Shown here: one piece after another, positions 1 through 16,484 of the stretch | Position numbering within the stretch: position 1 is the first letter of the stretch | Layout of the letters: every line of letters begins with the position of its first letter | Source: Candidatus Latescibacterota bacterium | Lineage (GTDB): Bacteria; Latescibacterota; Latescibacteria; Latescibacterales; Latescibacteraceae | NCBI GenBank assembly: GCA_041690195.1 | Contig: JAWLHT010000092.1 | Coordinates: 1-16,826 of the forward strand | Direction of reading: 5' to 3' | Length of the DNA: 16,826 nucleotides | Translations under genes and position numbers: made by a program | The notes under the pieces: model-generated | The model's database searches: none | Told to the model about the DNA's origin: nothing | The model's input: only the letters and a program-made list of their open reading frames with translations

Positions 1-2538
1 CAGCCGGACATCACGAATGGGTGGAGACCCGCCGCCCGGATTCATGGAAAAGTTACTGACGACTATATCTCCCCCGGGATCAGGGTCACCCAGGGTACCA
101 CCGATGGAAACATCGTATGAAACGAGCCCGGTCAAAGATTCGACACTGGGAACCATGTCCTCGAACCAGACAAGCCGAAGGCTGTCTCCGCGCGCGGAGG
201 CCCGGAAAGAGCTTGCTCCGGTCACCGTATAGAATCCCGGCGTATCGATCAATTCGAGACGCGCGCCCGCCACCGAGTAAAACTCATCCCGGTACAGCCG
301 CAACGAATCCACCGTGACCACTCCGGCGTCGAGAGCGGCATTTCCGCCGATAGAGTCCAGATAGGCCGACCGCCAGCTCGGTCGAAGGAGGGAAAACCGC
401 ATATCGGCCGAAGGATTCTCCAGGGTCCCGGAAAGGTCTCCCGTAAAAAACAGCGTTCCCTGTACCTCGGGAAACGCGGGGAGCAATGAGCGCAACAGCC
501 GCAGTTCAACGCTTTCTCCCCGCACGGATGCGGTAACCGCGCCAGCTTCCTGACCCAGGTCGAAATCAGCGGCGAACGTCCCACTCGCGGATGGTCCTTC
601 GCCATCCGCTTTCCGCAGGAGATCGAGGTTCACCGAACCGGCCAGGTCCGTGTAGTCCAGCACGCCCCCGGCCGCTATCCTCAGGGAATCGTTTTCCAGG
701 GTGACCTGTTCGACGCGGACGGTGTCCCCGCGAACCAGGGCATGCAGCGAACCTTCTCTGAACCGGATTCCCTGATAGGCGAGGTCATCCATGTCCGCCC
801 GCAACTCGCCGCGGATATTATCGAGAGGACCGTCCGCCCGGGCGGTGTACTGGAGACTCCCGAACAGGCTGTCCACATGGAGCGGCGGACGGAGCGCCGA
901 AAGGGAATCAAGGCTGCCGGAAGCCTGGAGATCGGAGAGGATGACAGTCTGGTTGCGGTATGCCACGCCGCCGGTCAGCTCTTCCACCGGAAATCCGGAA
1001 TACTGAATTGACCTTCCGTTCACCTCTGCCCAGATATCCGGTGAGGAAAATGTCCCGTTCACCGTTCCCTGGGCGAATACGGTCCCGGAAAAGTCCGGGA
1101 TTCCCAAAAGTGGAGTATAATCGGCGAGTTCCGCCACCTCCGCCGAGAAGGTGCCACCGAGCCTCCGGCCCGTTACATTGACGCGGGCGAGCACTTCGGA
1201 CTCGCCGCTCACGATCCGGGCATCGGCCACTCCCCTTTCGAGCGTGGCGAACCCGACGACATCCGGAATGCTCCGGGAGCGCCAGGCCGGGTCATCCACC
1301 TCCAGCGCAACCGTGGCGAGGAGACGGTCGAGATCATCCACGGGGCCTTCCACCTTGGTCCATCCGCTGATGGAACCGCGGTACAGCGCTTCCGGGTCTC
1401 CCAGGAATTCCGCCACCCGGGATGCGTTCAGCCCCTGAAATCGTGCATAGGCATTTTCTGCGGTCAAATCCCCGGTCCGGAGCGTTCCCCGACCCCAAAC
1501 GGACCCGCCGAAAGTCCGGACCGCCAGGCTGTCCACCACGACCGAGGCATCGCGCCACGCTCCATTCAGATAGGCTTCGTTCAGGAGAACGTCGGCCACC
1601 CGGAGTCCGGGCGAGGTCAGGGTGTACCCGACCCGAATATTCCCCGGATTCCCCGCCAATTCGACCCGGAGATCGACCTCGCCGGACATTCTCGGGATTC
1701 CCGTGGAAAAAGCGGCCCGGAGAAATTCCACAATGTTCTCCGACTGACCGGTGAGCCGGAAATCTCCTGCCAGCAGGGAGTCCGGGCCGGAGTGGTAGAG
1801 CAGGCTGTCGCCGACCAGAGTCGCCTCGGGGAGACGGAGCAGCAGGTCTCCCACCAGCAGCCGTCCCGAATTCCAGTTGCCGTCTCCCTCCAGGAACGTC
1901 CCGGTGAGCAGACCATCCTTGTACGCGAACCGGATTGAATCCGCCTGTACTTCGAAGTCATACCCTTCACGGCCCCGGTTGACCACCTGCCCCTGCAATT
2001 CCCGAATCGCGGTATCCAAAGGAACGGTCCGGTCGCCGTAGTGCAGGTATGAATCCTCGATGGAAACCCGGTTCAGCACGAACTGCACCGGCCCGGGGGC
2101 GGCCTCCTCCTCCGGCTCGCCGCCCAATTCCGGCAGATTTGAGCTTCCGGAGGAGTCGACTACCACGTTGAGCAGCAGACTGTCGACCCGGACGGACTGA
2201 ACCACGAACTTCCCTCTCAGAAGCGGGAGCAGACTGTAGTTTACCGTAGCGTGCCCCAGGTTCAGGAGCGGCAGTATATCACCATCCGGCTTTTCCTGAT
2301 ATATGCGTACTGAACCGACCTGAGCCCGGGTGAGCAGGTTTGTTTCGAATTCTCCGATGCGCACTTGCTGGCCGAGGAACTGCTGGAGCTGCCGCTGCAG
2401 GATTCCCCTGACATAGCTCTCGCCCGGAGGAATGGAAACCAGCACCCCCGCCAGGAACACCAGGACCAACGCAAGCCCCAGGATACCCAGAATGGAAAGC
2501 ACCACAAGGCGCAGAATCCTTTCCACCGCATGTTTCAT
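1..2538 (-). CDS. AsmA/TamB-like membrane protein, 3'-truncated by the window edge. It has one N-terminal TM anchor and then more than 800 aa of beta-rich sequence.
   Basis: Hand translation of the reverse strand from ATG 2538..2536 reads MKHAVERILRLVVLSILGILGLALVLVFLAGVLVSIPPGESYVRG... and continues without any stop to position 1. It is absent from the ORF track only because its stop lies outside the window. The single N-terminal hydrophobic helix followed by a very long Gly/Ser/Asp/Leu/Val-rich repetitive region is the AsmA-family/TamB architecture. The family call rests on architecture only; the C-terminal DUF490-like part would be outside the window. Confidence 0.5.
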   Translation of the reverse strand, partial: MKHAVERILRLVVLSILGILGLALVLVFLAGVLVSIPPGESYVRGILQRQLQQFLGQQVRIGEFETNLLTRAQVGSVRIYQEKPDGDILPLLNLGHATVNYSLLPLLRGKFVVQSVRVDSLLLNVVVDSSGSSNLPELGGEPEEEAAPGPVQFVLNRVSIEDSYLHYGDRTVPLDTAIRELQGQVVNRGREGYDFEVQADSIRFAYKDGLLTGTFLEGDGNWNSGRLLVGDLLLRLPEATLVGDSLLYHSGPDSLLAGDFRLTGQSENIVEFLRAAFSTGIPRMSGEVDLRVELAGNPGNIRVGYTLTSPGLRVADVLLNEAYLNGAWRDASVVVDSLAVRTFGGSVWGRGTLRTGDLTAENAYARFQGLNASRVAEFLGDPEALYRGSISGWTKVEGPVDDLDRLLATVALEVDDPAWRSRSIPDVVGFATLERGVADARIVSGESEVLARVNVTGRRLGGTFSAEVAELADYTPLLGIPDFSGTVFAQGTVNGTFSSPDIWAEVNGRSIQYSGFPVEELTGGVAYRNQTVILSDLQASGSLDSLSALRPPLHVDSLFGSLQYTARADGPLDNIRGELRADMDDLAYQGIRFREGSLHALVRGDTVRVEQVTLENDSLRIAAGGVLDYTDLAGSVNLDLLRKADGEGPSASGTFAADFDLGQEAGAVTASVRGESVELRLLRSLLPAFPEVQGTLFFTGDLSGTLENPSADMRFSLLRPSWRSAYLDSIGGNAALDAGVVTVDSLRLYRDEFYSVAGARLELIDTPGFYTVTGASSFRASARGDSLRLVWFEDMVPSVESLTGLVSYDVSIGGTLGDPDPGGDIVVSNFSMNPGGGSPPIRDVRL

Positions 2539-2774
2539 GATCCAACCAGAAGGAATGTGAATGCGTCGTGCCGGTGATTGTCTCCCGAGGGAGAAAACCG
2601 GAAAAGGGAATACGCACCAGACACCGGAGGTTACAACCATCCCCGGGAATACACCGAATCGGTGAAAAGCGCGGATTTCTGCAAAATGCGGCACACCGTA
2701 TTAGTTAGTCGGCCGGGCAGATGTTTCCGCGCTCCGGCTGACGCCTGCCTTTACCCGGGAGATCCGGACTGTCC

Positions 2775-2810
2775 GGATATATCATGTGCTATGAAGATAT
2801 ATAAATATCC
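2775..2810. promoter_or_regulatory. AT-rich nested palindrome GGATATATC-N12-GATATAT-aa-ATATCC in the ORF-free gap upstream of the AsmA-like gene
   Basis: ATATATC (2777-2783) and GATATAT (2796-2802) are reverse complements, as are the outer GGATAT (2775-2780) and ATATCC (2805-2810). It is the most AT-rich stretch in an otherwise GC-rich region, between the encapsulin stop (3090) and the AsmA start (2538). Confidence 0.3.
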
Positions 2811-3089
2811 TCCCCAAACCAAACCATAATCCGTTCGGCATTGCGGGAGGATAGTGTGAATTCCACGGAACCGCATCCGGCAGGGGAGACCGTCTGTCCG
2901 ATCCAGCCTCCCATCCCAAGCCACAATCAGCAGAGCAGGGGAATTGACAAATTCACCGGTTCACCGACGCCCCAATTCTTCCGGTATACGGCCCGTCCGC
3001 TGTTCACCCGCCCCGAACGCCGGCACACCCTGTACGGGGAATCGCGCCTGCACGCAGAAATCAGTGTCCGGTCGTCCCGTGGGCCCCGG

Positions 3090-3905
3090 TCAGGCGGTGA
3101 GAACACAGATGGCTTCCGGGACGTTAATCTTGAGGAACAGGCTCTCCGAGACTGAAAAGACATATCCGCTCCCCTCCGGCCCGATGAACCCGGCCGTAAT
3201 GTCCTGGCCGAGCACGATCGAGGCGAACTGGGAGCCCGCGGCCAGGAGTACGCCGCCGGAGCCGATGGTCGCCGACTTGTAAATGCCGCCGGTCACCATG
3301 ACCTGGATGTGCTGAAGTTCGGTCATCATCCCCTGCTGATACCGCCGGAGGAGCCGGTTATACAGTTCCGGGGCCAACGCCAGCGTGTACGGCCCGGGGT
3401 AACCGGCACGGTCAAGTGTCGTTACCGCCTCGATCACGGTTTCAGCAGCGCCCCCCACGGATTCCCAGCCGGAGATCGCCACCGTCTTGCCGCCGGGGAC
3501 ATTCAGAAGACCGTCAACTTTCATGTCGGCGTCACCATTGAAGACGAGGCCGTCTTCCATCCGGGCAACCTCGCGGGCGGCTTCCATTGCGGGACGGATA
3601 TTGAAAGGAACATTCCCGTCTTCAAAGGAGGCGATTTCCCGAACCGGTATCCGGAATTCGGCATGTAGAAACGCGAGCGGCCAGGGAGCGCTTACCGAGA
3701 TGCTCGATCCGGCAGCCTGATTCTCACGCACCGTCCGTTCCTGCATGGGAAGCGTCCGCAGCCCCAAACCATAGGGACCCTCGATGTCCAGCAGTTTACG
3801 ACCGGACAGAATTCCCCGGGCGGCCTCGACCACGGCGCGGTCCAGCACACTCCAAACGTTCTGCTCGAACGGAGCATCGCCTCGATTCAGGTACTTCCCG
3901 CTCAT
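3090..3905 (-). CDS. enc: Family 1 encapsulin nanocompartment shell protein (HK97 fold, linocin M18-like)
   Basis: From my recollection of T. maritima and M. xanthus EncA, the translation shares blocks with them. GRKLLDIEGPYGLG aligns with GRKFVDVEGPYGWEY, EDGLVFNGDADMKVDGLLN with EDEVIFRGCEKSGVKGLLS, GPYTLALAPELYNRL with GPYTLVINTDRWINFL, LGQDITAGFIG with LGQDLSIGYED, and NVPEAICVLTA at the C-terminus with VNPEALILLKF. I prefer the second in-frame ATG (3905) because it has the SD AAAGGGG and gives MSGKYLNRGDAPF..., which aligns with the known N-termini. The ORF-track start at 3926 adds 7 aa and has no SD. The stop is at 3090. Confidence 0.9.
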   Translation of the reverse strand: MSGKYLNRGDAPFEQNVWSVLDRAVVEAARGILSGRKLLDIEGPYGLGLRTLPMQERTVRENQAAGSSISVSAPWPLAFLHAEFRIPVREIASFEDGNVPFNIRPAMEAAREVARMEDGLVFNGDADMKVDGLLNVPGGKTVAISGWESVGGAAETVIEAVTTLDRAGYPGPYTLALAPELYNRLLRRYQQGMMTELQHIQVMVTGGIYKSATIGSGGVLLAAGSQFASIVLGQDITAGFIGPEGSGYVFSVSESLFLKINVPEAICVLTA

Positions 3906-3929
3906 GGGCACCCCTTTCTGGTTCATTGT

Positions 3930-4286
3930 TCATCGCATGCTTCCAACGGTGCTGGGTGTATCGTCCGGGGAACCCACGGCACCGGTTTTCACCGCTTCGG
4001 CAATTTCCTCCACCTCCCGGGCGCCCTTGTCGAGAAGGTCCTGCTCGTCGGAAAGGAGCATGTTCAGGAGCTTTTGGAATTCTCCCACATGCACCCGCTC
4101 CTCGTCGGCTACATCCCGGAGCACCGCCGCGGCAAGCGCGTTGTCGGTGGCGTCGGCGAGCGCCTCATAGAGGTGAACCGCCTCCTCTTCCGCCGAAAGG
4201 CTCAACCTGAGCCCCCTGGTCAGTTCATGGAGAGTGATTTTTCGCCCCGGAACAACTCCGGAGAACGGATTCACGAATTCCGGCAT
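3930..4286 (-). CDS. Encapsulated ferritin-like protein (EncFtn) cargo with a C-terminal targeting peptide ...STVGSMR
   Basis: The ferritin-like four-helix core EEEAVHLYEALADATDNALAAAVLRDVADEERVHVGEFQKLL aligns with the EncFtn pattern EELEAV.WYDQR......DPEL..IL.H.RDEEKEHAAM.LEWL. The C-terminal tail GSPDDTPSTVGSMR matches the Family-1 cargo-loading motif of the (T/G)(V/I)GS(L/M)(K/R) type. The gene ends 3 nt before the encapsulin start codon region (TGA ACA ATG). Start 4286 (MPEFVNPF...) is preferred because of the purine-rich SD GGAAAGGAAAAGG. Alternative starts are 4304 (MGKGKG...) and the ORF-track start 4388. Confidence 0.85.
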   Translation of the reverse strand: MPEFVNPFSGVVPGRKITLHELTRGLRLSLSAEEEAVHLYEALADATDNALAAAVLRDVADEERVHVGEFQKLLNMLLSDEQDLLDKGAREVEEIAEAVKTGAVGSPDDTPSTVGSMR

Positions 4287-4311
4287 ACCTTTTCCTTTCC
4301 CCATACCGGTT

Positions 4312-4327
4312 CCGGAAACAATTCCGG
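4312..4327. promoter_or_regulatory. Perfect 6-4-6 palindrome CCGGAA-acaa-TTCCGG in the EncFtn 5' leader (candidate operator or 5'-UTR hairpin)
   Basis: Exact inverted repeat seen in the sequence, between the candidate -10 and the purine-rich SD of EncFtn. It does not resemble the Fur box; which regulator or RNA function it serves is unknown. Confidence 0.3.
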
Positions 4328-4340
4328 CCGCATATGGTTG

Positions 4341-4349
4341 ATTATGACA
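4341..4349 (-). promoter_or_regulatory. Candidate extended -10 promoter (TGTCATAAT) for the EncFtn-encapsulin transcript; no recognisable -35
   Basis: Minus strand GGGTGTCATAATCAACC: TG-n-CATAAT. It lies 55-60 nt upstream of the EncFtn start, and the palindrome CCGGAA-acaa-TTCCGG (4312-4327) sits between it and the SD. Confidence 0.3.
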
Positions 4350-4463
4350 CCCGCTGCTCCGGGTCGCGCCGAACGCGGCCGGAAACACGCGTCATGATGT
4401 AACCTGCCCGGCCGCATACGACGGGTGCACGGGTACAGCGGTGTCGGCGAGGAATACGACTGA

Positions 4464-4646
4464 TCACATGTTTCCCACAGTGTCCGGAGGAGCGATGGTG
4501 GTGGTATCCGGCATCGGCTCGGTCATGGTAGTATCGGCTCCGTCCATGCCCGGGGCCGGAGTCTCTTCCTGCTGCCCGCAGGCTAAAGCAATGAACGACA
4601 CGAATGTTACGGCGGCCAGTGTCTTCAGAAAATTCTTTCCTCTCAT
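4464..4646 (-). CDS. Small (60 aa) putative secreted lipoprotein, hypothetical. Its C-terminus DTVGNM resembles the EncFtn targeting tail.
   Basis: The internal ATG at 4646 is preceded by a perfect SD GGAGGA with a 7-nt spacer. The N-terminus MRGKNFLKTLAAVTFVSFIALAC|GQQ has n-, h- and lipobox-like regions (ALAC fits the PROSITE-style lipoprotein pattern). The mature part is acidic and Thr/Pro-rich. The extra 17 residues in the ORF-track version (4697) lack an SD. The ORF is small, hence the modest confidence. Confidence 0.4.
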   Translation of the reverse strand: MRGKNFLKTLAAVTFVSFIALACGQQEETPAPGMDGADTTMTEPMPDTTTIAPPDTVGNM

Positions 4647-4662
4647 CTCGATTTCCTCCAAC

Positions 4663-4679
4663 GAACGGATTTCCCGTTC
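4663..4679 (-). promoter_or_regulatory. Hairpin GAACGG-atttc-CCGTTC 4 nt upstream of the SD of the small lipoprotein-like ORF
   Basis: 6-bp inverted repeat abutting GGAGGA (4659..4654). A similar GGAACG-N6-CGTTCC hairpin occurs at 4815-4832 next to an A7/A4 run. Either could be a shared operator motif (core GAACG) or RNA structure. Confidence 0.25.
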
Positions 4680-5024
4680 CAGGTTGACCGGTTTCATGCC
4701 GCGCCGTCAGAAAACCTGATGCAGCATCCCTTTCACCTCGCGGAGCAACGACCCGCCATTGCCGAAAGTTCGCGGCAGTGCTTGAGGTGGAGCGGAGTGG
4801 TTCCCGCCTTCCGGGGAACGGCATGTCGTTCCGCAAAAAAACAAAATAGCGCGGAACATCTTCCTTTTGCCGCCCAGAGCCTCCTTTCACTGAAGGTTCA
4901 TATCACACCACCCATACCGTACACCCGTGCCGGGGAGAACGGCGCCCGGTTTGGCCGCTGAAAACGACCGTGATTCATACCCATCCACCATGACTCGTCA
5001 CCGTATCCATCATACCCGGAATCG

Positions 5025-6035
5025 TCACCTTGGCGGAAGGTTGTTTCCCAATCGCACCGCCTCCCTGACCATCTGATTTGAATATCCCCATTCATTATCG
5101 TACCAGCTCATAACTTTTACGAGATCTCCATCCACCACCTGTGTCATGGTAAGGTCCACGATGGATGCCCGGGGATCCTTGATAATGTCGGAAGAAACGA
5201 TCTGCGCTTCGTTCGCCCCCAGGATACCCCGGTACCGCTCGCTTTCCGCCTCTTCGCGGAAGATGGCGTTGATCTCTTCCGCCGAGGTAGACCGGGAAGC
5301 CAGAATGATGATATCGGAGATGGAGCCCACCGGAATCGGGCCGCGTACCGCCACCCCGTTGAACCGGCCGGCAAGTTGGGGGAGCGCCCGGGTTGTGGCG
5401 ATGGCCGCACCGGTGGATGTGGGAACGAAGTTCTGTGCGCCTGCTCTTCCCCGCCGAAAGCTTTTGGCCGGAGCATCGACAATGGACTGGGAGGAAGTAT
5501 AGGCATGAATAGTGGTCATTATTGCCTTTTTCACTCCTATCCGGCGATCCATGATCTCCATTACCGGGGTGATGCAGTTCGTGGTGCAGCTCGCGCAGGA
5601 CAGTACCCTCACCGAAGAATCGGAACGATCATTCACCCCGTACACAATGGTCTCGACTTCCTCGCTTTTGGACGGTGCCGAGAGGATGACGCTCCGCGCG
5701 CCGGCCCTGATGTGACGCTCCATGTCTTCCCGCCGGGTGAACTTCCCGGTGCATTCCAGAACGATGTCAACCCGGAGATCTCCCCAGGGTAGAGCCTCGG
5801 GATCCTTCTCGTGAAAAACCTTATAGGGCTTGTCATCTATAATCAGGGTATCGTCCTCCGAACGAACCGTCCGCTCATACCGGCCGTACACCGTGTCGAA
5901 TGACAGCAGGTATGCGAGGTTATCCACCGGAACCAGATCGTTGATCGCCACAAGCTCAAGTTCCTGGGTTTCAAGAATTACCTTGAGCGCTGCTCTTCCG
6001 ATTCTCCCCAACCCGTTTATCGCCACTTTTGCCAT
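5025..6035 (-). CDS. gap: Glyceraldehyde-3-phosphate dehydrogenase, type I (NAD(P)-binding GIGRIGR, catalytic SCASCTTNC)
   Basis: MAKVAINGLGRIGR Rossmann motif, catalytic Cys motif ASCTTNC, VPTSTGAA and WYDNEWGYS C-terminal blocks. The true start ATG 6035 is preceded by SD AAGGAGGA with a 7-nt spacer. The 83 upstream residues of the ORF-track version (6284) are junk. Confidence 0.93.
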   Translation of the reverse strand: MAKVAINGLGRIGRAALKVILETQELELVAINDLVPVDNLAYLLSFDTVYGRYERTVRSEDDTLIIDDKPYKVFHEKDPEALPWGDLRVDIVLECTGKFTRREDMERHIRAGARSVILSAPSKSEEVETIVYGVNDRSDSSVRVLSCASCTTNCITPVMEIMDRRIGVKKAIMTTIHAYTSSQSIVDAPAKSFRRGRAGAQNFVPTSTGAAIATTRALPQLAGRFNGVAVRGPIPVGSISDIIILASRSTSAEEINAIFREEAESERYRGILGANEAQIVSSDIIKDPRASIVDLTMTQVVDGDLVKVMSWYDNEWGYSNQMVREAVRLGNNLPPR

Positions 6036-6290
6036 ATATTCCTCCTTGCTTCTCCGATGGTACACAGTGGCTCCGAGAATAAAAAAGCAGGGCATACCGG
6101 GGTTACTCTCCGGCTCCGGTCCTTTCCTTCGTCTTTTCCCTACATCCCTGTTCCTGCTTTTTCGATGCTTCACGTGTGTAACCACCGGAACAATCAACCG
6201 GGCGGGAAATGCGTTTTCACCCGCCCACATTCGAAACCACTCGTCACCTGTCACAGGAAACGACGTATTCCCGCTTCCGGCCATCCAGAC

Positions 6291-7094
6291 TCAGACACTA
6301 TGCTGTACGTAATACTCGTATACCTCGTCCTCGAAGGCGCGGTCGGGCATCCGGGACGGGTCATACTCGGGTCCGAGTTTCACCACGTCTTTCCGGACGG
6401 TGATGAACACCCTGGATTCAGCCCAATCCACCCGGAGAATCATGTGGGGCAGGAGCAGAACATGTTTCCCGGGAAGAAAAGTACGGGTATCCACCGAGAG
6501 ATACCGGATCGCCCAGGTATCGTCGTCTATGATGAGATTTTCGAGATGTCCGATCTCACCGTCAGTGGCCTGGATGGGCCCGCCGATGGTATCCTTGACG
6601 CTCCGGATGTTGAATCCAATCCCTCCTACCGCCTCTGTTCCAGCTTCCCGGCGGTGCTGCTCCTCGGACGAGGGGGAATAATACCCGCGCGCCGCTCCGA
6701 AATAGCCCGGTTTGCGAATCTCCGGATAGCCGGGTTCGCTCACCCCGGGATATTCAGGGTAGCGGTTGATATCCCAATAAACCGGCCACTGGAAGAACGT
6801 ATTGATTTCCTCTTCCTTCTTTCGGGAAACGGGACGGCCGAAATCCACTTCCGGGCTGTTCCGGAGCGCATCCCGAGTCAGAGAGACCCCGAACCGGCGT
6901 GCATTCCAGTCTTTTTCCCCAAGAGCCTCAACGGATAGCAGCGCTTTACGGCTGGAAAACCACGAGTCCATATCAACCCGAAGGTATCGGATCACCCAGT
7001 AGTCCTCATCAAAATACAGATCGTCGACTTTCCCGATCTCTCCCTCTGCCCCATACACGCTGTATCCAATGATATCCTTTGCCTTTCGGAGCAT
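6291..7094 (-). CDS. Tandem PRC-barrel domain protein (two PRC barrels joined by a Tyr/Pro/Gly-rich linker)
   Basis: Two copies of the PRC-barrel signature. The first is KDIIGYSVYGAEGEIGKVDDLYFDEDYWVIRYLRVD. The second is KDTIGGPIQATDGEIGHLENLIIDDDTWAIRYLSVD. The start ATG 7094 (MLRKAKDIIGY) is preceded by SD AAGGAGGG. The ORF-track 5' extension to 7199 is Gly/Arg junk. Confidence 0.8.
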   Translation of the reverse strand: MLRKAKDIIGYSVYGAEGEIGKVDDLYFDEDYWVIRYLRVDMDSWFSSRKALLSVEALGEKDWNARRFGVSLTRDALRNSPEVDFGRPVSRKKEEEINTFFQWPVYWDINRYPEYPGVSEPGYPEIRKPGYFGAARGYYSPSSEEQHRREAGTEAVGGIGFNIRSVKDTIGGPIQATDGEIGHLENLIIDDDTWAIRYLSVDTRTFLPGKHVLLLPHMILRVDWAESRVFITVRKDVVKLGPEYDPSRMPDRAFEDEVYEYYVQHSV

Positions 7095-7272: not shown

Positions 7273-7317
7273 TCACAAGAATGAACCGGGCCAAGACCCG
7301 GGTTACCCCGGCCCGGC
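7273..7317 (-). terminator. Candidate intrinsic terminator for the MarR gene, overlapping its stop codon
   Basis: Minus-strand RNA GGCCGGGCCGGGGUAACCCGGGUCUUGGCCCGG forms a CCGGGCC/GGCCCGG 7-bp GC stem, extendable by two G-U pairs. It is followed by UUCAUUCUUGUG (7 U of 12). Moderate quality. Confidence 0.3.
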
Positions 7318-7809
7318 CGGTGCAGGCGTATCCACGGGAGGGCGTCCGGGTTCCGGTTCGGGCGGATGCTCGTTCTCAAGCTCAAGCATGGCAGCCACCC
7401 GCTGCAATGTGGACAGGATCAGCGATTGCTCCCACTCGTTCAGCTTCCCATATTCCCGAAAAAACCGTTCCTGAAGGAGCGGAGGAGACTTCCGGATGAT
7501 TTCCAGGCCCGCCTCGGTCACCGATAACGGCGAATGAATCAGATCCTCCGCCTCCGCGCTCCGCCGAACCAGTTCACGCTTTTCCAACCGGTCCAGAATA
7601 TCGTTTACCGCGGGCACGGATATTTCCACCGTGGATGCCAGTTCACCGGCCGAAATTCCCGCATGTCTGCTGATTTCGCGCATCAGGAACAGCTGGGGAC
7701 CGGTCAGATTATGCGCGAGGAAGATGTTTCTCGAGTGTACATCGATGGCATGGGTGATCCGCCGAAGCGCAATGAGAACCAGTTCGTTCCGGGTATGGTC
7801 GGCATTCAT
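7303..7809 (-). CDS. MarR-family transcriptional regulator with a Pro-rich C-terminal tail
   Basis: Winged-helix MarR pattern (LTGPQLFLMREISRHAGISAGELASTVEISVPAVNDILDRLEKRELVRR). The ORF track begins at a TTG (7833). ATG 7809 (MNADHTRNELV...) has the SD AGGAAAAGGAA and lies a suitable distance downstream of the -10 of a near-consensus promoter. The tail ENEHPPEPEPGRPPVDTPAPAGPG is unusual for MarR. Confidence 0.85.
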   Translation of the reverse strand: MNADHTRNELVLIALRRITHAIDVHSRNIFLAHNLTGPQLFLMREISRHAGISAGELASTVEISVPAVNDILDRLEKRELVRRSAEAEDLIHSPLSVTEAGLEIIRKSPPLLQERFFREYGKLNEWEQSLILSTLQRVAAMLELENEHPPEPEPGRPPVDTPAPAGPG

Positions 7810-7831: not shown

Positions 7832-7861
7832 AATATACGCGCGGCACCACCTCTATGTCAA
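7832..7861 (-). promoter_or_regulatory. Sigma70-type promoter of the MarR gene: -35 TTGACA (7861..7856), 18-nt spacer, -10 TATATT (7837..7832)
   Basis: Read on the minus strand: TTGACA-tagaggtggtgccgcgcg-TATATT. It is followed ~20 nt later by the SD and ATG 7809. It sits in an AT-rich divergent intergenic region. Confidence 0.55.
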
Positions 7862-8548: not shown

Positions 8549-8692
8549 ACAAGAATTTGTGTGGACCACCACAATCGAATCGTTCCGATTCGACTTGAGG
8601 CCCCGGAGAAGCATAATGAACTCCCGGTGAACTGCCCCTCCTGATCTTTCATCGGCTTTTATCATATGCATCACACGCATCATAATTCAGAC
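8549..8692. repeat. Degenerate second copy of the same MITE-like element (about 70-75% identity by eye, same orientation)
   Basis: GGACCACCACAATCGAATCGTTCCGATTCGACTTGAGGCCCCGG (8563-8606) matches GGACCACCCCAATCGAATCGTACCGATTCGGTTGGGGACCCCGG of the complete copy. The right end CGCATCATAATTCAGAC (8676-8692) matches CGCATCCCAATTCAGAC. The left TIR is eroded (aaGAATTtGtgtGG against ctGAATTgGgatgcgcgGG). Internal segments share ttttcatc.g..ttt.atcat blocks. The stem shows compensatory-looking differences between copies. Confidence 0.45.
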
Positions 8693-8736
8693 AGATTATT
8701 ACCGCTGTCAACAGGGATGGCGCAAACATTACCCCC

Positions 8737-9390: not shown

Positions 9391-9539
9391 GTCTGAATTG
9401 GGATGCGCGGGACCACCCCAATCGAATCGTACCGATTCGGTTGGGGACCCCGGGATGCATGGGATAAAAAGATGACGAAAGACAAGGCCTTTTCATCAGT
9501 ATTTCATCATGCCTTTATCGCGCGCATCCCAATTCAGAC
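9391..9539. mobile_element. MITE-like non-autonomous element, 149 bp, with perfect 19-bp terminal inverted repeats and an internal 14-bp-stem hairpin
   Basis: Left end GTCTGAATTGGGATGCGCG (9391-9409) is the exact reverse complement of the right end CGCGCATCCCAATTCAGAC (9521-9539). Inside, CCCCAATCGAATCG-tac-CGATTCGGTTGGGG (9416-9446) pairs 13 of 14. No coding capacity. A related copy lies 800 bp away (8549-8692) and a third partial copy at 16570. Confidence 0.55.
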
Positions 9540-9611
9540 AGGCTTTCCCGTTTTTTCGAATCTGATGCAAGATACCCCTTTCTCCTCCGAAACTCAAGGG
9601 GTACCGCACGG

Positions 9612-13461: not shown

Positions 13462-14151
13462 ATGCGGTTTTTTACCTCACACTCCATGCCGTTCCTTTGG
13501 ACGGCATTGCTGATCACGGTTGGAACAGTCCTGTCGCTGGCAGAGCCGCCGTCCCCCGGTTCGGACAGCGTGGTCACGGACTTCCGGGCCAATCTGCGCC
13601 CGCTTCCCGCCGAAGCCTCCGGGCCGGTGCGATTCGTTTCGGAAGAAATTGACCTGCGCGTCACCGGGGGCCGGGTTACAGTCACCGGGCGCTATCATCT
13701 CCATTCCGACCTCCCCGAAACCCGCGCCATCCCTCTCGCCTACCCCTTTCCAGTGAATGCCGGGGCCGATTTCCCCGACACCATCCGGGTGTACCAGGGG
13801 AAAGGCCGCATCCCGGTTCCCTTCGAGGAAGACCGGAACGGAGCCGCCGTATTCTTCCGCATCGAGGCCGGACGCAATTTCGAGTTCACCGCCGTCTATT
13901 CCCAAAAGCTCGGGGCGGGCGAGGCCACCTACATCCTGACCACCACCAAAGCCTGGGGCGCGCCGCTCCGGAGCGCACGGTTCACGGTCACCCTGCCGGA
14001 CAGCCTGGTCCCGGTGTTCTGGTCATACCCCCCGGACCGCACCGAGCGGAAAGCGGAGGGAGTCACCATGTATTCCATCCACCGGACGGATTTCCTCCCG
14101 GACCGCGATCTCACCCTCCGCTGGAAACCCCGGAAAGCGAGGACACCATGA
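13462..14151 (+). CDS. Hypothetical exported protein (230 aa, Sec signal peptide), translationally coupled to the downstream T9SS cargo gene
   Basis: ATG 13462 is preceded by GGGGAA with a 7-nt spacer. The ORF track begins at an upstream TTG (13444). Signal peptide MRFFTSHSMPFLWTALLITVGTVLSLA|EPP. The stop TGA overlaps the next ATG (ATGA at 14148-14151). A strong sigma70 promoter lies 30-65 nt upstream. I recognise no family. Confidence 0.6.
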   Translation: MRFFTSHSMPFLWTALLITVGTVLSLAEPPSPGSDSVVTDFRANLRPLPAEASGPVRFVSEEIDLRVTGGRVTVTGRYHLHSDLPETRAIPLAYPFPVNAGADFPDTIRVYQGKGRIPVPFEEDRNGAAVFFRIEAGRNFEFTAVYSQKLGAGEATYILTTTKAWGAPLRSARFTVTLPDSLVPVFWSYPPDRTERKAEGVTMYSIHRTDFLPDRDLTLRWKPRKARTP

Positions 14152-16484
14152 AGAACGGTATAAGGGCGATGCTGTTCGTTTTCTGGACGATGGCGCTCGC
14201 TCCAACCGGGACATCCGCCAATCCAGTCATGCCAGGGGGCATCACGGAGTTCTCCGTGGACCCGGACTGGATCGAGGTGAACACCAATCCCTGGCCATTC
14301 GGCGTCAACAGACCGATCATCATTGACGGGAAAGAGGTCGCCATAGACTGGGATGCAGTTGCGGCGAACGAAAACTTCGGGAGACAGGTCGTCTTCGACA
14401 GCACGAACACATCCGGATTCGACCTGAAGCCGGAGGGCGGGTATATCTATATTTCCGTCCTGTCGGACACCCTGTTTTATGGTCCGGGGCAGATGTGCCC
14501 GTCTCCATTGCCCGGGGAGAGCATTTCCCTCAACGGCGAATGGCAGTACCGGGGTTCCCGGTATCCCTGGAATTTCGATCCGACGCCCACACCACGCGAA
14601 CCGAACGACGCCCCGGACCCGAAATATGGAAGCGGAACGGTTTTCATCAACGAGGTCTTCCCCGGCAGTGAGGGCCAACCGGCTTTCATCGAACTGTACA
14701 ACCGTGGAGATTCCCCGGCGGATATCGGCGGGTACTCGCTGATCACGCTCGCCCGGTATCGCGTTCCCGGTGGTACGGTCATCCCGGCCCGCGGGTTTTT
14801 CACCCTTTCCGCGCCGGAATTCCCCGTCGGGTTCGCACTATCCCCGGAGGGCGGGACGGTATACATCCAGAATGACCGGTACGAACTGGTGGACCAGATG
14901 GGCTGGCCGGGCGGGATGGAAGCCGGAATCTCGGTGAACCGCGTTCCCGATGGCCTCGCGACCGAGTTCCGGGGGTATGATTACGCCACATCCCTCGATT
15001 TCCGGGAGGGGAATGCCTCGCCGGACGCGACGAATTCGGGATTCCCCATTCTCTCCATGTCCATGGAGAAAACGAACGACCTGCTCTGCCCGGGAGCGCG
15101 GAAACAGTACTGCTGCCGGGGAACGGACAGCCGGGGCCGCACCGCGCGGATGCTCCCGGAGTGGAGCATCCGCGGAGGCTTCGCCGAGGTGGACGGGTAC
15201 GGCGTGGTCACCGGCATCCGGTGCGGAGAGGGCGTCCTCACCGCTCAATATGAAGCGTTTACCGACACTCTGTTCATCCGGGGTGCGGCGGGGGGAAGTC
15301 TGTTGAATGACGCGGTGTGGAAAAACGAATATAATCCATATCGAGTGGAAAGTCAGTTCTGGATTGGGAATGGAGTAACGTTACGGATAGAGCCTGGAGT
15401 GGTAATCGATTTTTATGGAGACAGCCCGGTTTACGTATCGGGAACATTGCTCTGTATGGGTAATGCGGAACAGCCAATTTCCTTTTCCGCCCAACCGCCA
15501 CGAGATCCCGACCGAAGCAGCGGTATTAACTTTTATGGTGGATCAAGCATTCTCAAGTATTGTATGTTCGACCGGACTGAGACACAGATAAACATAACCG
15601 AGTACGCGGATTCCACGAAAGTTTCCCATTGCGTTTTTCGTGGCGGAAAGAACTCGATATTGATATCCGGAGAGGCGATAATAGAACACAATTTGTTGGT
15701 CGGTTCTTTTGCAGAACAGGAGCCGGGGATACGAATCAGCCGGATGGCACGGGAAGGAACATGGGAATGGCCGGGAACCGCACGCGTGGTCAACAACACG
15801 CTCATCGACTGGAACAAGGGAATCACCATTGACCGCGCCTCCGAAACGGTCATCCGCAACAACATTATCTCCAACTGCACCACCGGCATCGACGGTTCCG
15901 CCGATATCGCCCACAACTGCATCGCCGCCTCCAATCCCTTCGTCAATGGTCCGGAGGGCGCGGGCGTCCTCTCCGGGGTCAACGCCCGGGGGACCGCCTG
16001 CGATGCGTTCCGGAACATCTTCGTGAATCCCGGATTCACGGACGCCGCCGGGGGCGATTACCGTCTGGCTGCAAACTCTCCCTGTATCGACGCCGGAGAC
16101 CCCTCCATTCTGGATGAAGACGGCAGCGTTTCCGACCTGGGCATGTATGGCGGCGGGGGTGACATCGTGCCGGTGGTGGAAGAGCGGGAGGACGACGCGC
16201 TGCCACGGACGCTCCGGGTGGAACGGAATTATCCCAATCCCTTCAATCCCTCAACGACCATCGGGTTCACCCTGCCGGAGGAAGGCCGGGCCAGCCTGAC
16301 CGTATATGCCATCACCGGCGGGAAAGTCCGCGAACTGGTCTCCGGCGCGCTCCCGGCGGGGAAACACGAGGCGCGGTGGGACGGCCGCGACGACCGGGGG
16401 CATGCCGTTTCCTCCGGCGTCTACCTCGTCCGGCTCACGCAGAAAGGTCGGGTTTCCACCGCCAAGATGCTGCTGATAAAGTAA
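14148..16484 (+). CDS. Large secreted protein with a lamin-tail domain (LTD), parallel beta-helix repeats and a C-terminal T9SS (Por) sorting domain
   Basis: Signal peptide MKNGIRAMLFVFWTMALAPTGTSA|NP. LTD signature GTVFINEVFPGSEGQPAFIELYNRGDSPADIGGYSL...GFFTL...VDQMGW. Beta-helix repeats (NNTLIDWNKGITIDRASETVIRNNIISNCTTGIDGSADIAHNCI). C-terminal ~80 aa (RNYPNPFNPSTTIGFTLPEEGRASLTVYAITGGKVRELV...GVYLVRLTQKGRVSTAKMLLIK) match the T9SS type A C-terminal sorting domain. SD GAGGA 5 nt upstream. Confidence 0.8.
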   Translation: MKNGIRAMLFVFWTMALAPTGTSANPVMPGGITEFSVDPDWIEVNTNPWPFGVNRPIIIDGKEVAIDWDAVAANENFGRQVVFDSTNTSGFDLKPEGGYIYISVLSDTLFYGPGQMCPSPLPGESISLNGEWQYRGSRYPWNFDPTPTPREPNDAPDPKYGSGTVFINEVFPGSEGQPAFIELYNRGDSPADIGGYSLITLARYRVPGGTVIPARGFFTLSAPEFPVGFALSPEGGTVYIQNDRYELVDQMGWPGGMEAGISVNRVPDGLATEFRGYDYATSLDFREGNASPDATNSGFPILSMSMEKTNDLLCPGARKQYCCRGTDSRGRTARMLPEWSIRGGFAEVDGYGVVTGIRCGEGVLTAQYEAFTDTLFIRGAAGGSLLNDAVWKNEYNPYRVESQFWIGNGVTLRIEPGVVIDFYGDSPVYVSGTLLCMGNAEQPISFSAQPPRDPDRSSGINFYGGSSILKYCMFDRTETQINITEYADSTKVSHCVFRGGKNSILISGEAIIEHNLLVGSFAEQEPGIRISRMAREGTWEWPGTARVVNNTLIDWNKGITIDRASETVIRNNIISNCTTGIDGSADIAHNCIAASNPFVNGPEGAGVLSGVNARGTACDAFRNIFVNPGFTDAAGGDYRLAANSPCIDAGDPSILDEDGSVSDLGMYGGGGDIVPVVEEREDDALPRTLRVERNYPNPFNPSTTIGFTLPEEGRASLTVYAITGGKVRELVSGALPAGKHEARWDGRDDRGHAVSSGVYLVRLTQKGRVSTAKMLLIK

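Follow-up and report, generated by a model that had tools for sequence, protein, structure and literature searches.

We report here a two-gene locus in a 16,826-nt contig from a Candidatus Latescibacterota bacterium (G+C 60%; the whole contig was analysed and is referred to below as the window), and consider that its region 3090-4286 very probably encodes a Family 1 (classical) encapsulin iron-mineralising nanocompartment with an encapsulated ferritin (EncFtn) as its cargo. A first-pass annotation made from the sequence alone had proposed a Family 1 core operon of this kind, and our searches bear this out: the products score above the cutoffs of the relevant hidden Markov models, the ferroxidase residues of the cargo are invariant among its homologues, and the gene layout is kept in nearly all related loci, as detailed below. 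The two open reading frames (ORFs; 3930..4388 and 3090..3926) are arranged head to tail, and the coordinates 3090-4286 assigned to the pair were right; the strand had to be corrected, as both genes lie on the minus strand.

The gene for the Family 1 shell protein (3090..3905, minus strand) encodes 271 residues, or 278 if an alternative in-frame ATG at 3926 is used. The anticipated match to PF04454 (Linocin_M18) was found with 222.1 bits against a cutoff of 24.3 (E-value 8.9e-66), and the protein also matched NF041155 (encap_f1) with 218.5 bits against a cutoff of 100 over the entire model (1-261/261); against encap_f3 it reached merely 16.8 bits for a cutoff of 180. The protein is predicted to have an HK97 fold with an N-terminal helix, P-domain, E-loop and A-domain, and carries neither the N-arm nor the E-loop insertion domains of Family 2. 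In our comparison of shell anatomy the values were 29.6 for the encapsulin of Dendrosporobacter quercicolus (9i8e), 26.5 for that of Brevibacterium linens, 23.4 for that of Thermotoga maritima, 23.2 for Pyrococcus furiosus, 17.1 for the best phage major capsid protein, and about 14.5-14.9 for Family 2 shells. Because the HK97 fold is shared with phages, we considered whether this could be a phage or prophage major capsid gene and not an encapsulin gene at all, and there were indeed weak matches of this sort, the best PHROG being the phrog_264 major head protein (43.7 bits), together with a match to PF09950 that stayed below its cutoff (21 bits). However, the encapsulin models score 5-10 times higher, a cargo gene with a targeting peptide sits upstream, and portal, terminase, protease and tail genes were not found anywhere on the 16.8-kb contig; we give a phage origin of this kind next to no probability and regard it as excluded.

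The upstream gene (3930..4286, minus strand; 118 residues plus stop) encodes an EncFtn cargo of the FLP-TP class that is EncB/EncC-like. Its product matched NF058679 (EncB_fam) with 100 bits against a cutoff of 90 over the complete model (1-117/117), and PF02915 with 30.4 bits against a cutoff of 22.8. The score against TIGR04535 (ferrit_encaps), the model of the classical encapsulin-associated ferritin, was 63 bits for a cutoff of 125, and for this reason we filed the cargo under the EncB/EncC-like subfamily; the earlier expectation of an EncFtn match was sustained by EncB_fam, but the classical EncFtn subfamily that it had implied was not. A phmmer search identified as closest solved relatives the Myxococcus xanthus EncC (7s8t, 57.5 bits) and the EncFtn domain of P. 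furiosus (5n5e, 43.7 bits), and it also found EncB. The cargo aligns with 5n5e without any gap and shifted by one residue, placing E33, Y40, E63 and H66 at Glu32, Tyr39, Glu62 and His65; in Rhodospirillum rubrum numbering Glu32 is bidentate, Tyr39 conserved, Glu62 bridging, and His65 part of the EXXH motif, and mutating these ferroxidase residues lowers or abolishes the ferroxidase activity of the R. rubrum EncFtn (PMC11202242). Across 45 cargo homologues E33, E35, Y40, E62, E63, H66, E69 and G115 were invariant. The core motif cited in the first-pass annotation is ferritin-like as claimed, although the string itself was approximate, the actual residues reading AEEEAVHLY...RDVADEERVH.

Structure prediction is consistent with this assignment. 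An AlphaFold2 model of the cargo with a predicted local distance difference test score (pLDDT) of 86.7 has helices at residues 19-46, 50-77 and 81-100 and, from residue 101 onwards, a tail with no secondary structure (block pLDDT 57 and 51), and when it was searched against the PDB with Foldseek all of the top 50 matches were encapsulated ferritins. The FLP-TP class has been described as a half-ferritin of ~100 residues followed by a disordered tail of 10-40 residues with a conserved targeting peptide (PMC11202242), and the predicted cargo fold, with its helical ~100 residues and its disordered, peptide-bearing tail, corresponds to this description.

The tail consists of a flexible linker that connects the helical domain with the targeting peptide (residues 101-111; 3954..3986, minus strand), whose alignment columns are variable and gapped, and of the cargo-loading peptide STVGSMR itself (residues 112-118; 3933..3953, minus strand). 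That the C-terminus is a loading peptide had already been suggested, and we read it as ...PSTVGSMR*, in keeping with the family consensus (T/S)(V/I)Gx(L/M)(K/R) of the 45-homologue alignment, in which G115 is invariant; several homologues stop right after the K/R of the peptide. It likewise matches the peptides of M. xanthus EncC and EncB, given as RLTVGS(N)L(M) and PLTV(I)GS(T)L (PMC11202242, Table 2), and the native peptide PLTVGSLRRGG (PMC7925596). Many close EncFtn homologues of 100-105 residues (P0135, P0152 and others) have neither linker nor targeting peptide and resemble the short 's-FLP' class.

The start of the cargo gene at the ATG at 4286 agrees with the beginning of the EncB_fam model, 43 of the 45 aligned homologues begin with MPEF or MAEF, and the cargo of the closest relative, L083, has a stop two codons upstream of its start. 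This ATG is preceded by a ribosome-binding region (4288..4302, minus strand; GGGGAAAGGAAAAGG) in which GAAAGG(A/G)A is kept in an alignment of the window with four relatives. For the shell ORF there is a choice of in-frame ATG, 3926 or 3905 (M8). The second is most likely the start, because the four closest shell homologues, 271 residues long and covering 97% of the query, have alignments that begin at the second Met, because the L083 shell has a GTG at the position equivalent to 3905 and an in-frame TGA five codons upstream of it, and because the cargo-shell spacers of the relatives are 19-20 nt long (and carry a purine-rich AGGGG(G)). With this start the spacer (3906..3929, minus strand) would be 24 nt long, with AAAGGGG, which is Shine-Dalgarno-like, lying 5 nt ahead of the 3905 ATG; the 3-nt separation reported previously holds only for the ATG at 3926 and is probably an underestimate. 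A single message would carry both genes in the order cargo-shell, with a separate purine-rich ribosome-binding site ahead of each.

To place the pair in context we scanned one genome per species, which yielded 350 relatives, and retained the best 80 loci together with four close metagenomic contigs. In 81 of 82 loci tblastn placed EncFtn directly upstream of the shell gene, the one exception being cut at a contig end. These loci were distributed over Chloroflexota, Planctomycetota, Verrucomicrobiota, Fibrobacterota, Armatimonadota, Thermodesulfobacteriota, Methanomicrobiales and Hadarchaeota. Close relatives of the shell are rare: they comprise four contigs at 66-76% identity, one of which is named Candidatus Latescibacterota, and a metagenome scan for such relatives returned a single match of 46% identity. 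Both genes are under purifying selection when compared with L083 (ratios of non-synonymous to synonymous differences, pN/pS, of 0.30 and 0.24), and a search of the accessible literature found no paper on encapsulins in Latescibacteria.

By analogy with characterized systems, the cargo would be a half-ferritin of ~100 residues that dimerizes, with E33, E63 and H66 making up a di-iron ferroxidase centre where the two subunits meet (Y40 being nearby), and the dimers would assemble into ring-shaped decamers. Loading would be mediated by the disordered ~18-residue cargo tail ending in TVGSMR, such that the decamers come to lie inside the shell. Fe2+ would then pass through the shell pores and be oxidized by the cargo, and the Fe3+ mineral would be kept inside the shell, the presumed outcome being an iron store and the removal of Fenton-reactive iron under oxidative stress. 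Several points weigh against this interpretation. Assembly, loading and ferroxidase activity are all proposed by homology; the kinetic details of the cargo may differ from those of the R. rubrum and T. maritima EncFtn, as the TIGR04535 score below cutoff suggests; and further cargo genes may lie elsewhere in a genome of which 16.8 kb is visible. Moreover, no Fur/PerR-like box stands out upstream of EncFtn, the best matches there being no better than those in shuffled sequences, and an iron- or peroxide-responsive control is therefore without support. The system type is well known and widespread, what we describe is one more Flp-type Family 1 encapsulin, in this case from an uncultured lineage of the Fibrobacteres-Chlorobi-Bacteroidetes (FCB) group, and as it stands the finding matters little.

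The size of the particle is a separate question. The first-pass annotation expected a cage of ~24 nm with triangulation number T=1, and we put at about even the chances that the same system instead builds a particle of T=3 or T=4, larger at about 32-42 nm and with 180-240 subunits. M. xanthus, D. quercicolus and Quasibacillus thermotolerans are given as T=3/T=4 examples, and the window shell scores best against shells of this sort: 164 bits with 9i8e, 147 with M. xanthus EncA, 138 with Q. thermotolerans and 132 with Bacillus methanolicus, the solved shells scoring at 113-164 bits (9i8e, EncA, 6nj8, 9fy6) having 3-4 chains per asymmetric unit or being known T=3/T=4 formers. Solved T=1 shells score no higher than 88 bits (Haliangium ochraceum 88, T. 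maritima 81, mycobacteria 67 or less, with Mycobacterium tuberculosis at 67), and the EncB/EncC-like character of the cargo also points towards the larger cage. Set against this, the shell does not have the 9-residue insertion that is present ahead of the E-loop in 9i8e and EncA, and its 271 residues correspond to the length of T=1 shells (264-266 residues). In addition, it is the E-loop's conformation that sets the T number (PMC11664910; PMC6668986), and EncA itself forms both T=1 (7s21) and T=3 (7s20) shells; a fold comparison of the window shell did not separate the T=1 and T=3/T=4 classes. The shell belongs to a large, uncharacterised clade of proteins of 262-271 residues that are about 50% identical, occur in Chloroflexota, Planctomycetota, Verrucomicrobiota, Fibrobacterota and methanogenic archaea, and are intermediate in sequence between T=1 and T=3/T=4 shells of solved structure. 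As its members resemble T=3/T=4 formers overall and do so without the insertion preceding the E-loop, the clade would be a useful test case for the determinants of T number.

Another gene on the contig had a superficial claim to be part of the compartment. Between the GAPDH gene described below and EncFtn is a small lipoprotein gene (4464..4646, minus strand; 60 residues), a neighbour that is probably outside the system, whose product ends in DTVGNM behind a Pro/Thr-rich linker and could on that account be read as a second cargo. Of 230 stop-to-stop segments examined across the six reading frames, two had [TS][VIL]Gx[LMI] within their last 12 residues, namely EncFtn and the lipoprotein ORF, for 0.37 such segments expected in total from shuffled sequences, and the gene itself appears genuine, being kept in L083 (71% amino acid identity, pN/pS 0.32) with a GGAGGA Shine-Dalgarno sequence, a signal peptide and a lipobox Cys. 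However, the L083 orthologue ends in DTTGNM and has lost the hydrophobic anchor, the only two distant relatives identified among 1.8 billion representatives (P0242 and P0243) end in ...DTTTVQ and ...DTTGAVK, the tail belongs to a PDTTG repeat, the signal peptide and lipobox Cys predict export from the cytoplasm, and the gene is missing in L001, L002 and L084. As the DTVGNM tail is not conserved we rejected the lipoprotein as a second cargo, a role that we consider highly improbable, and the likeness of its tail to a targeting peptide appears to be a coincidence. No further ORF bearing a targeting peptide was supported on the 16.8-kb contig.

Upstream of the encapsulin pair, and likewise on the minus strand, are genes for a type I GAPDH (5025..6035; 336 residues; TIGR01534, 388.1 bits against a cutoff of 367.2), a double PRC-barrel protein (6291..7094; 267 residues, with PF05239 in two stretches) and a MarR-family regulator (7303..7809; PF01047, 47.1 bits), which has no cysteine and heads the co-oriented cluster. 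Also upstream of the pair are a divergent GntR gene and, ahead of marR, a sigma-70-like promoter match (7832..7861, minus strand; TTGACA-18-TATATT, 11 of 12 consensus positions), which is a consensus match only. No sigma-70 promoter was called in the 177-nt spacer before EncFtn, where the promoter type of the host phylum may differ from the consensus. An in-frame upstream ATG at 6284 would give the GAPDH a non-conserved extension of 83 residues.

This neighbourhood, the one less ordinary aspect of the locus, raises the possibility that a larger stress island under MarR control has the encapsulin pair as its distal end. GAPDH and the PRC-barrel protein would then have a functional connection to the compartment, either by being co-regulated with it or by a physical association that does not use a canonical targeting peptide. 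The order MarR, PRC-barrel, GAPDH, EncFtn, shell recurs co-oriented in L001 and L002 (with the PRC-barrel orthologues of 267 residues in the same position, and MarR orthologues that start at the equivalent of M9 and contain no Cys), and GAPDH-EncFtn-shell recurs on the short contig L084. Beyond these, in an Anaerolineales locus (L057) a 67%-identical GAPDH gene lies 1.4 kb, and a double PRC-barrel gene 6 kb, upstream of EncFtn; in Thermococcales, the Family 4 A-domain encapsulins have GAPDH as their conserved partner (PMC8346489). We nevertheless consider such a coupling unlikely. The four close loci probably share one ancestral arrangement, and L057 is the sole locus with related GAPDH and PRC-barrel genes among the 80 from the genome collection; one in 80 with a GAPDH within 10 kb would be close to chance level. 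The GAPDH C-termini have neither a conserved extension nor a TVGSL-like motif, the MarR is without a cysteine and is not an OhrR-type peroxide sensor, and there is the failure to detect a Fur/PerR-like box before EncFtn. Nor is the cluster in the window compact: its genes are separated by 208, 255, 378 and 177 nt, marR is followed by a terminator-like hairpin, and the lipoprotein gene is inserted.

A stronger version would hold that the ferritin encapsulin of this Latescibacterota lineage is the end module of a conserved MarR-PRC-barrel-GAPDH-EncFtn-shell island and not a stand-alone operon, with a dedicated GAPDH, an enzyme with an oxidation-sensitive thiol, co-regulated or physically associated with the iron-sequestering compartment. 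We find this more doubtful still; if true it would parallel the way in which Thermococcales combine GAPDH with Family 4 encapsulins. Two specific forms of the link can be discarded, namely GAPDH as a cargo, as a targeting peptide is absent at all four C-termini, and OhrR-type thiol sensing by the MarR protein, which has zero cysteines. We regard the synteny as a lineage-specific neighbourhood, for which a functional link is a low-probability possibility. The pairing of Thermococcales Family 4 encapsulins with GAPDH is the sole reason to mention such a link, and the synteny would become moderately interesting only once a function for it had been shown. Two of the gaps in the window, 6036-6290 (255 nt) and 4647-5024 (378 nt), have counterparts of just 12 and about 70-90 nt in L001/L002, and the spacers inside the cluster are in this sense expanded in the window genome. 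The neighbourhood of L057 itself looks like a stress island, with a DUF2267-like gene and phosphoribosyltransferases.

Downstream of the encapsulin pair, no intrinsic terminator was found directly after the shell stop, the first 166 nt folding worse than shuffled sequences (z +1.97). About 240 nt downstream of this stop lies an inverted repeat (2792..2852, minus strand; ATCCTCCC-N30-GGGAGGAT, then TTTATATAT) with a stem of 9 pairs, one of them covarying, that is conserved in all close relatives reaching that far. It is kept 3' of the shell gene in L083 (1981-2040) and L001 (4501-4565), and is degenerate in L084 (~2620-2690). The repeat may be the terminator of the operon or a regulatory site of the next gene, which starts at 2535. 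The latter occupies 1-2535 (minus strand) and encodes the N-terminal 845 residues of a large DUF748/YhdP/TamB-like protein with a membrane anchor, the remainder lying beyond the contig end; these first 2.5 kb seemed free of ORFs because the open-ended gene was omitted from the ORF list, and the notion that 1-3090 is a non-coding stretch was ruled out by codon-position GC periodicity and translation. We also came across 22 nt of the EncFtn leader (4297-4318) that are complementary to part of the shell coding region (3635-3656), a pairing that we judged to be due to chance.

With regard to the source of the DNA, the first-pass annotation had remarked on an apparent FCB-group genome with a type IX secretion system (T9SS), and the window is consistent with this. 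At its C-terminus, the protein encoded at 14148-16484 (plus strand) carries a sorting domain of the T9SS type A kind (TIGR04183, 26.9 bits for a cutoff of 23), which supports an FCB-group origin, and the named nearest relatives are Candidatus Latescibacterota. The product of 14148-16484 is a secreted beta-helix/lamin-tail-domain protein, and its gene is adjoined by GH141-like and SASA esterase genes. Elsewhere in the window two copies of an element resembling a miniature inverted-repeat transposable element, at 8563-8697 and 9391-9541, flank a LysE transporter gene; these are direct repeats 847 nt apart with 84% identity, the copy at 9391-9541 having 22-nt terminal inverted repeats (GTCTGAATTGGGATGCGCGGGA) that are 95% complementary, and an extra arm copy is located near the contig end (16565-16597). 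Rfam and tRNA scans of the window gave no matches.

Among known systems, one of the closest counterparts is the EncA/EncB/EncC system of M. xanthus (7s20, 7s2t, 7s5c, 7s8t). Its shell is also of Family 1 (147 bits, about 30% identity), the window cargo falls in EncB_fam with EncC as its closest solved relative (44-46% identity by Foldseek), and the two systems have in common a TVGS(L/M)R-type peptide, an EXXH ferroxidase motif and a cargo gene beside the shell gene (EncB in M. xanthus). They differ in that the window shell is 16 residues shorter than EncA, from which its want of the pre-E-loop insertion also sets it apart, and in that a single cargo is visible and no EncD-like flavin reductase is encoded on the contig; the features of an M. 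xanthus-type multi-cargo T=3 system (the pre-E-loop segment and the extra cargos EncC/EncD) were not found there. The D. quercicolus encapsulin (9i8e), with 278 residues, differs from the window shell in the same insertion; its T number is presumed from the 4 chains per asymmetric unit, and a search of the accessible literature found no paper on this encapsulin. The T=1 EncFtn encapsulins of T. maritima and of R. rubrum/H. ochraceum (3dkt, 5da5, 7odw) share the two-gene architecture, the ferroxidase residues and a similar shell length with the window system. However, the shell similarity is much lower for T. maritima and H. ochraceum (81-88 bits), the R. rubrum EncFtn gave no phmmer match at E<0.1 and is 19-25% identical by Foldseek, the window cargo is set apart from these classical T=1 systems by its TIGR04535 score, and the T. 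maritima peptide is GGDLGIRK where the window cargo has TVGSMR. In the EncFtn-shell fusion of P. furiosus (2e0z, 5n5e) the EncFtn domain aligns without gaps to the window cargo (37% identity, target-normalised TM-score 0.83), which is nonetheless a separate protein with a targeting peptide. Finally, the Family 4 A-domain encapsulin-GAPDH operons of Thermococcales (PMC8346489) resemble the window in having a GAPDH gene beside an encapsulin-type gene; those encapsulins are truncated A-domain proteins paired directly with GAPDH, whereas the window has a full-length Family 1 shell with a ferritin cargo of its own and a GAPDH neighbour that carries no targeting peptide.

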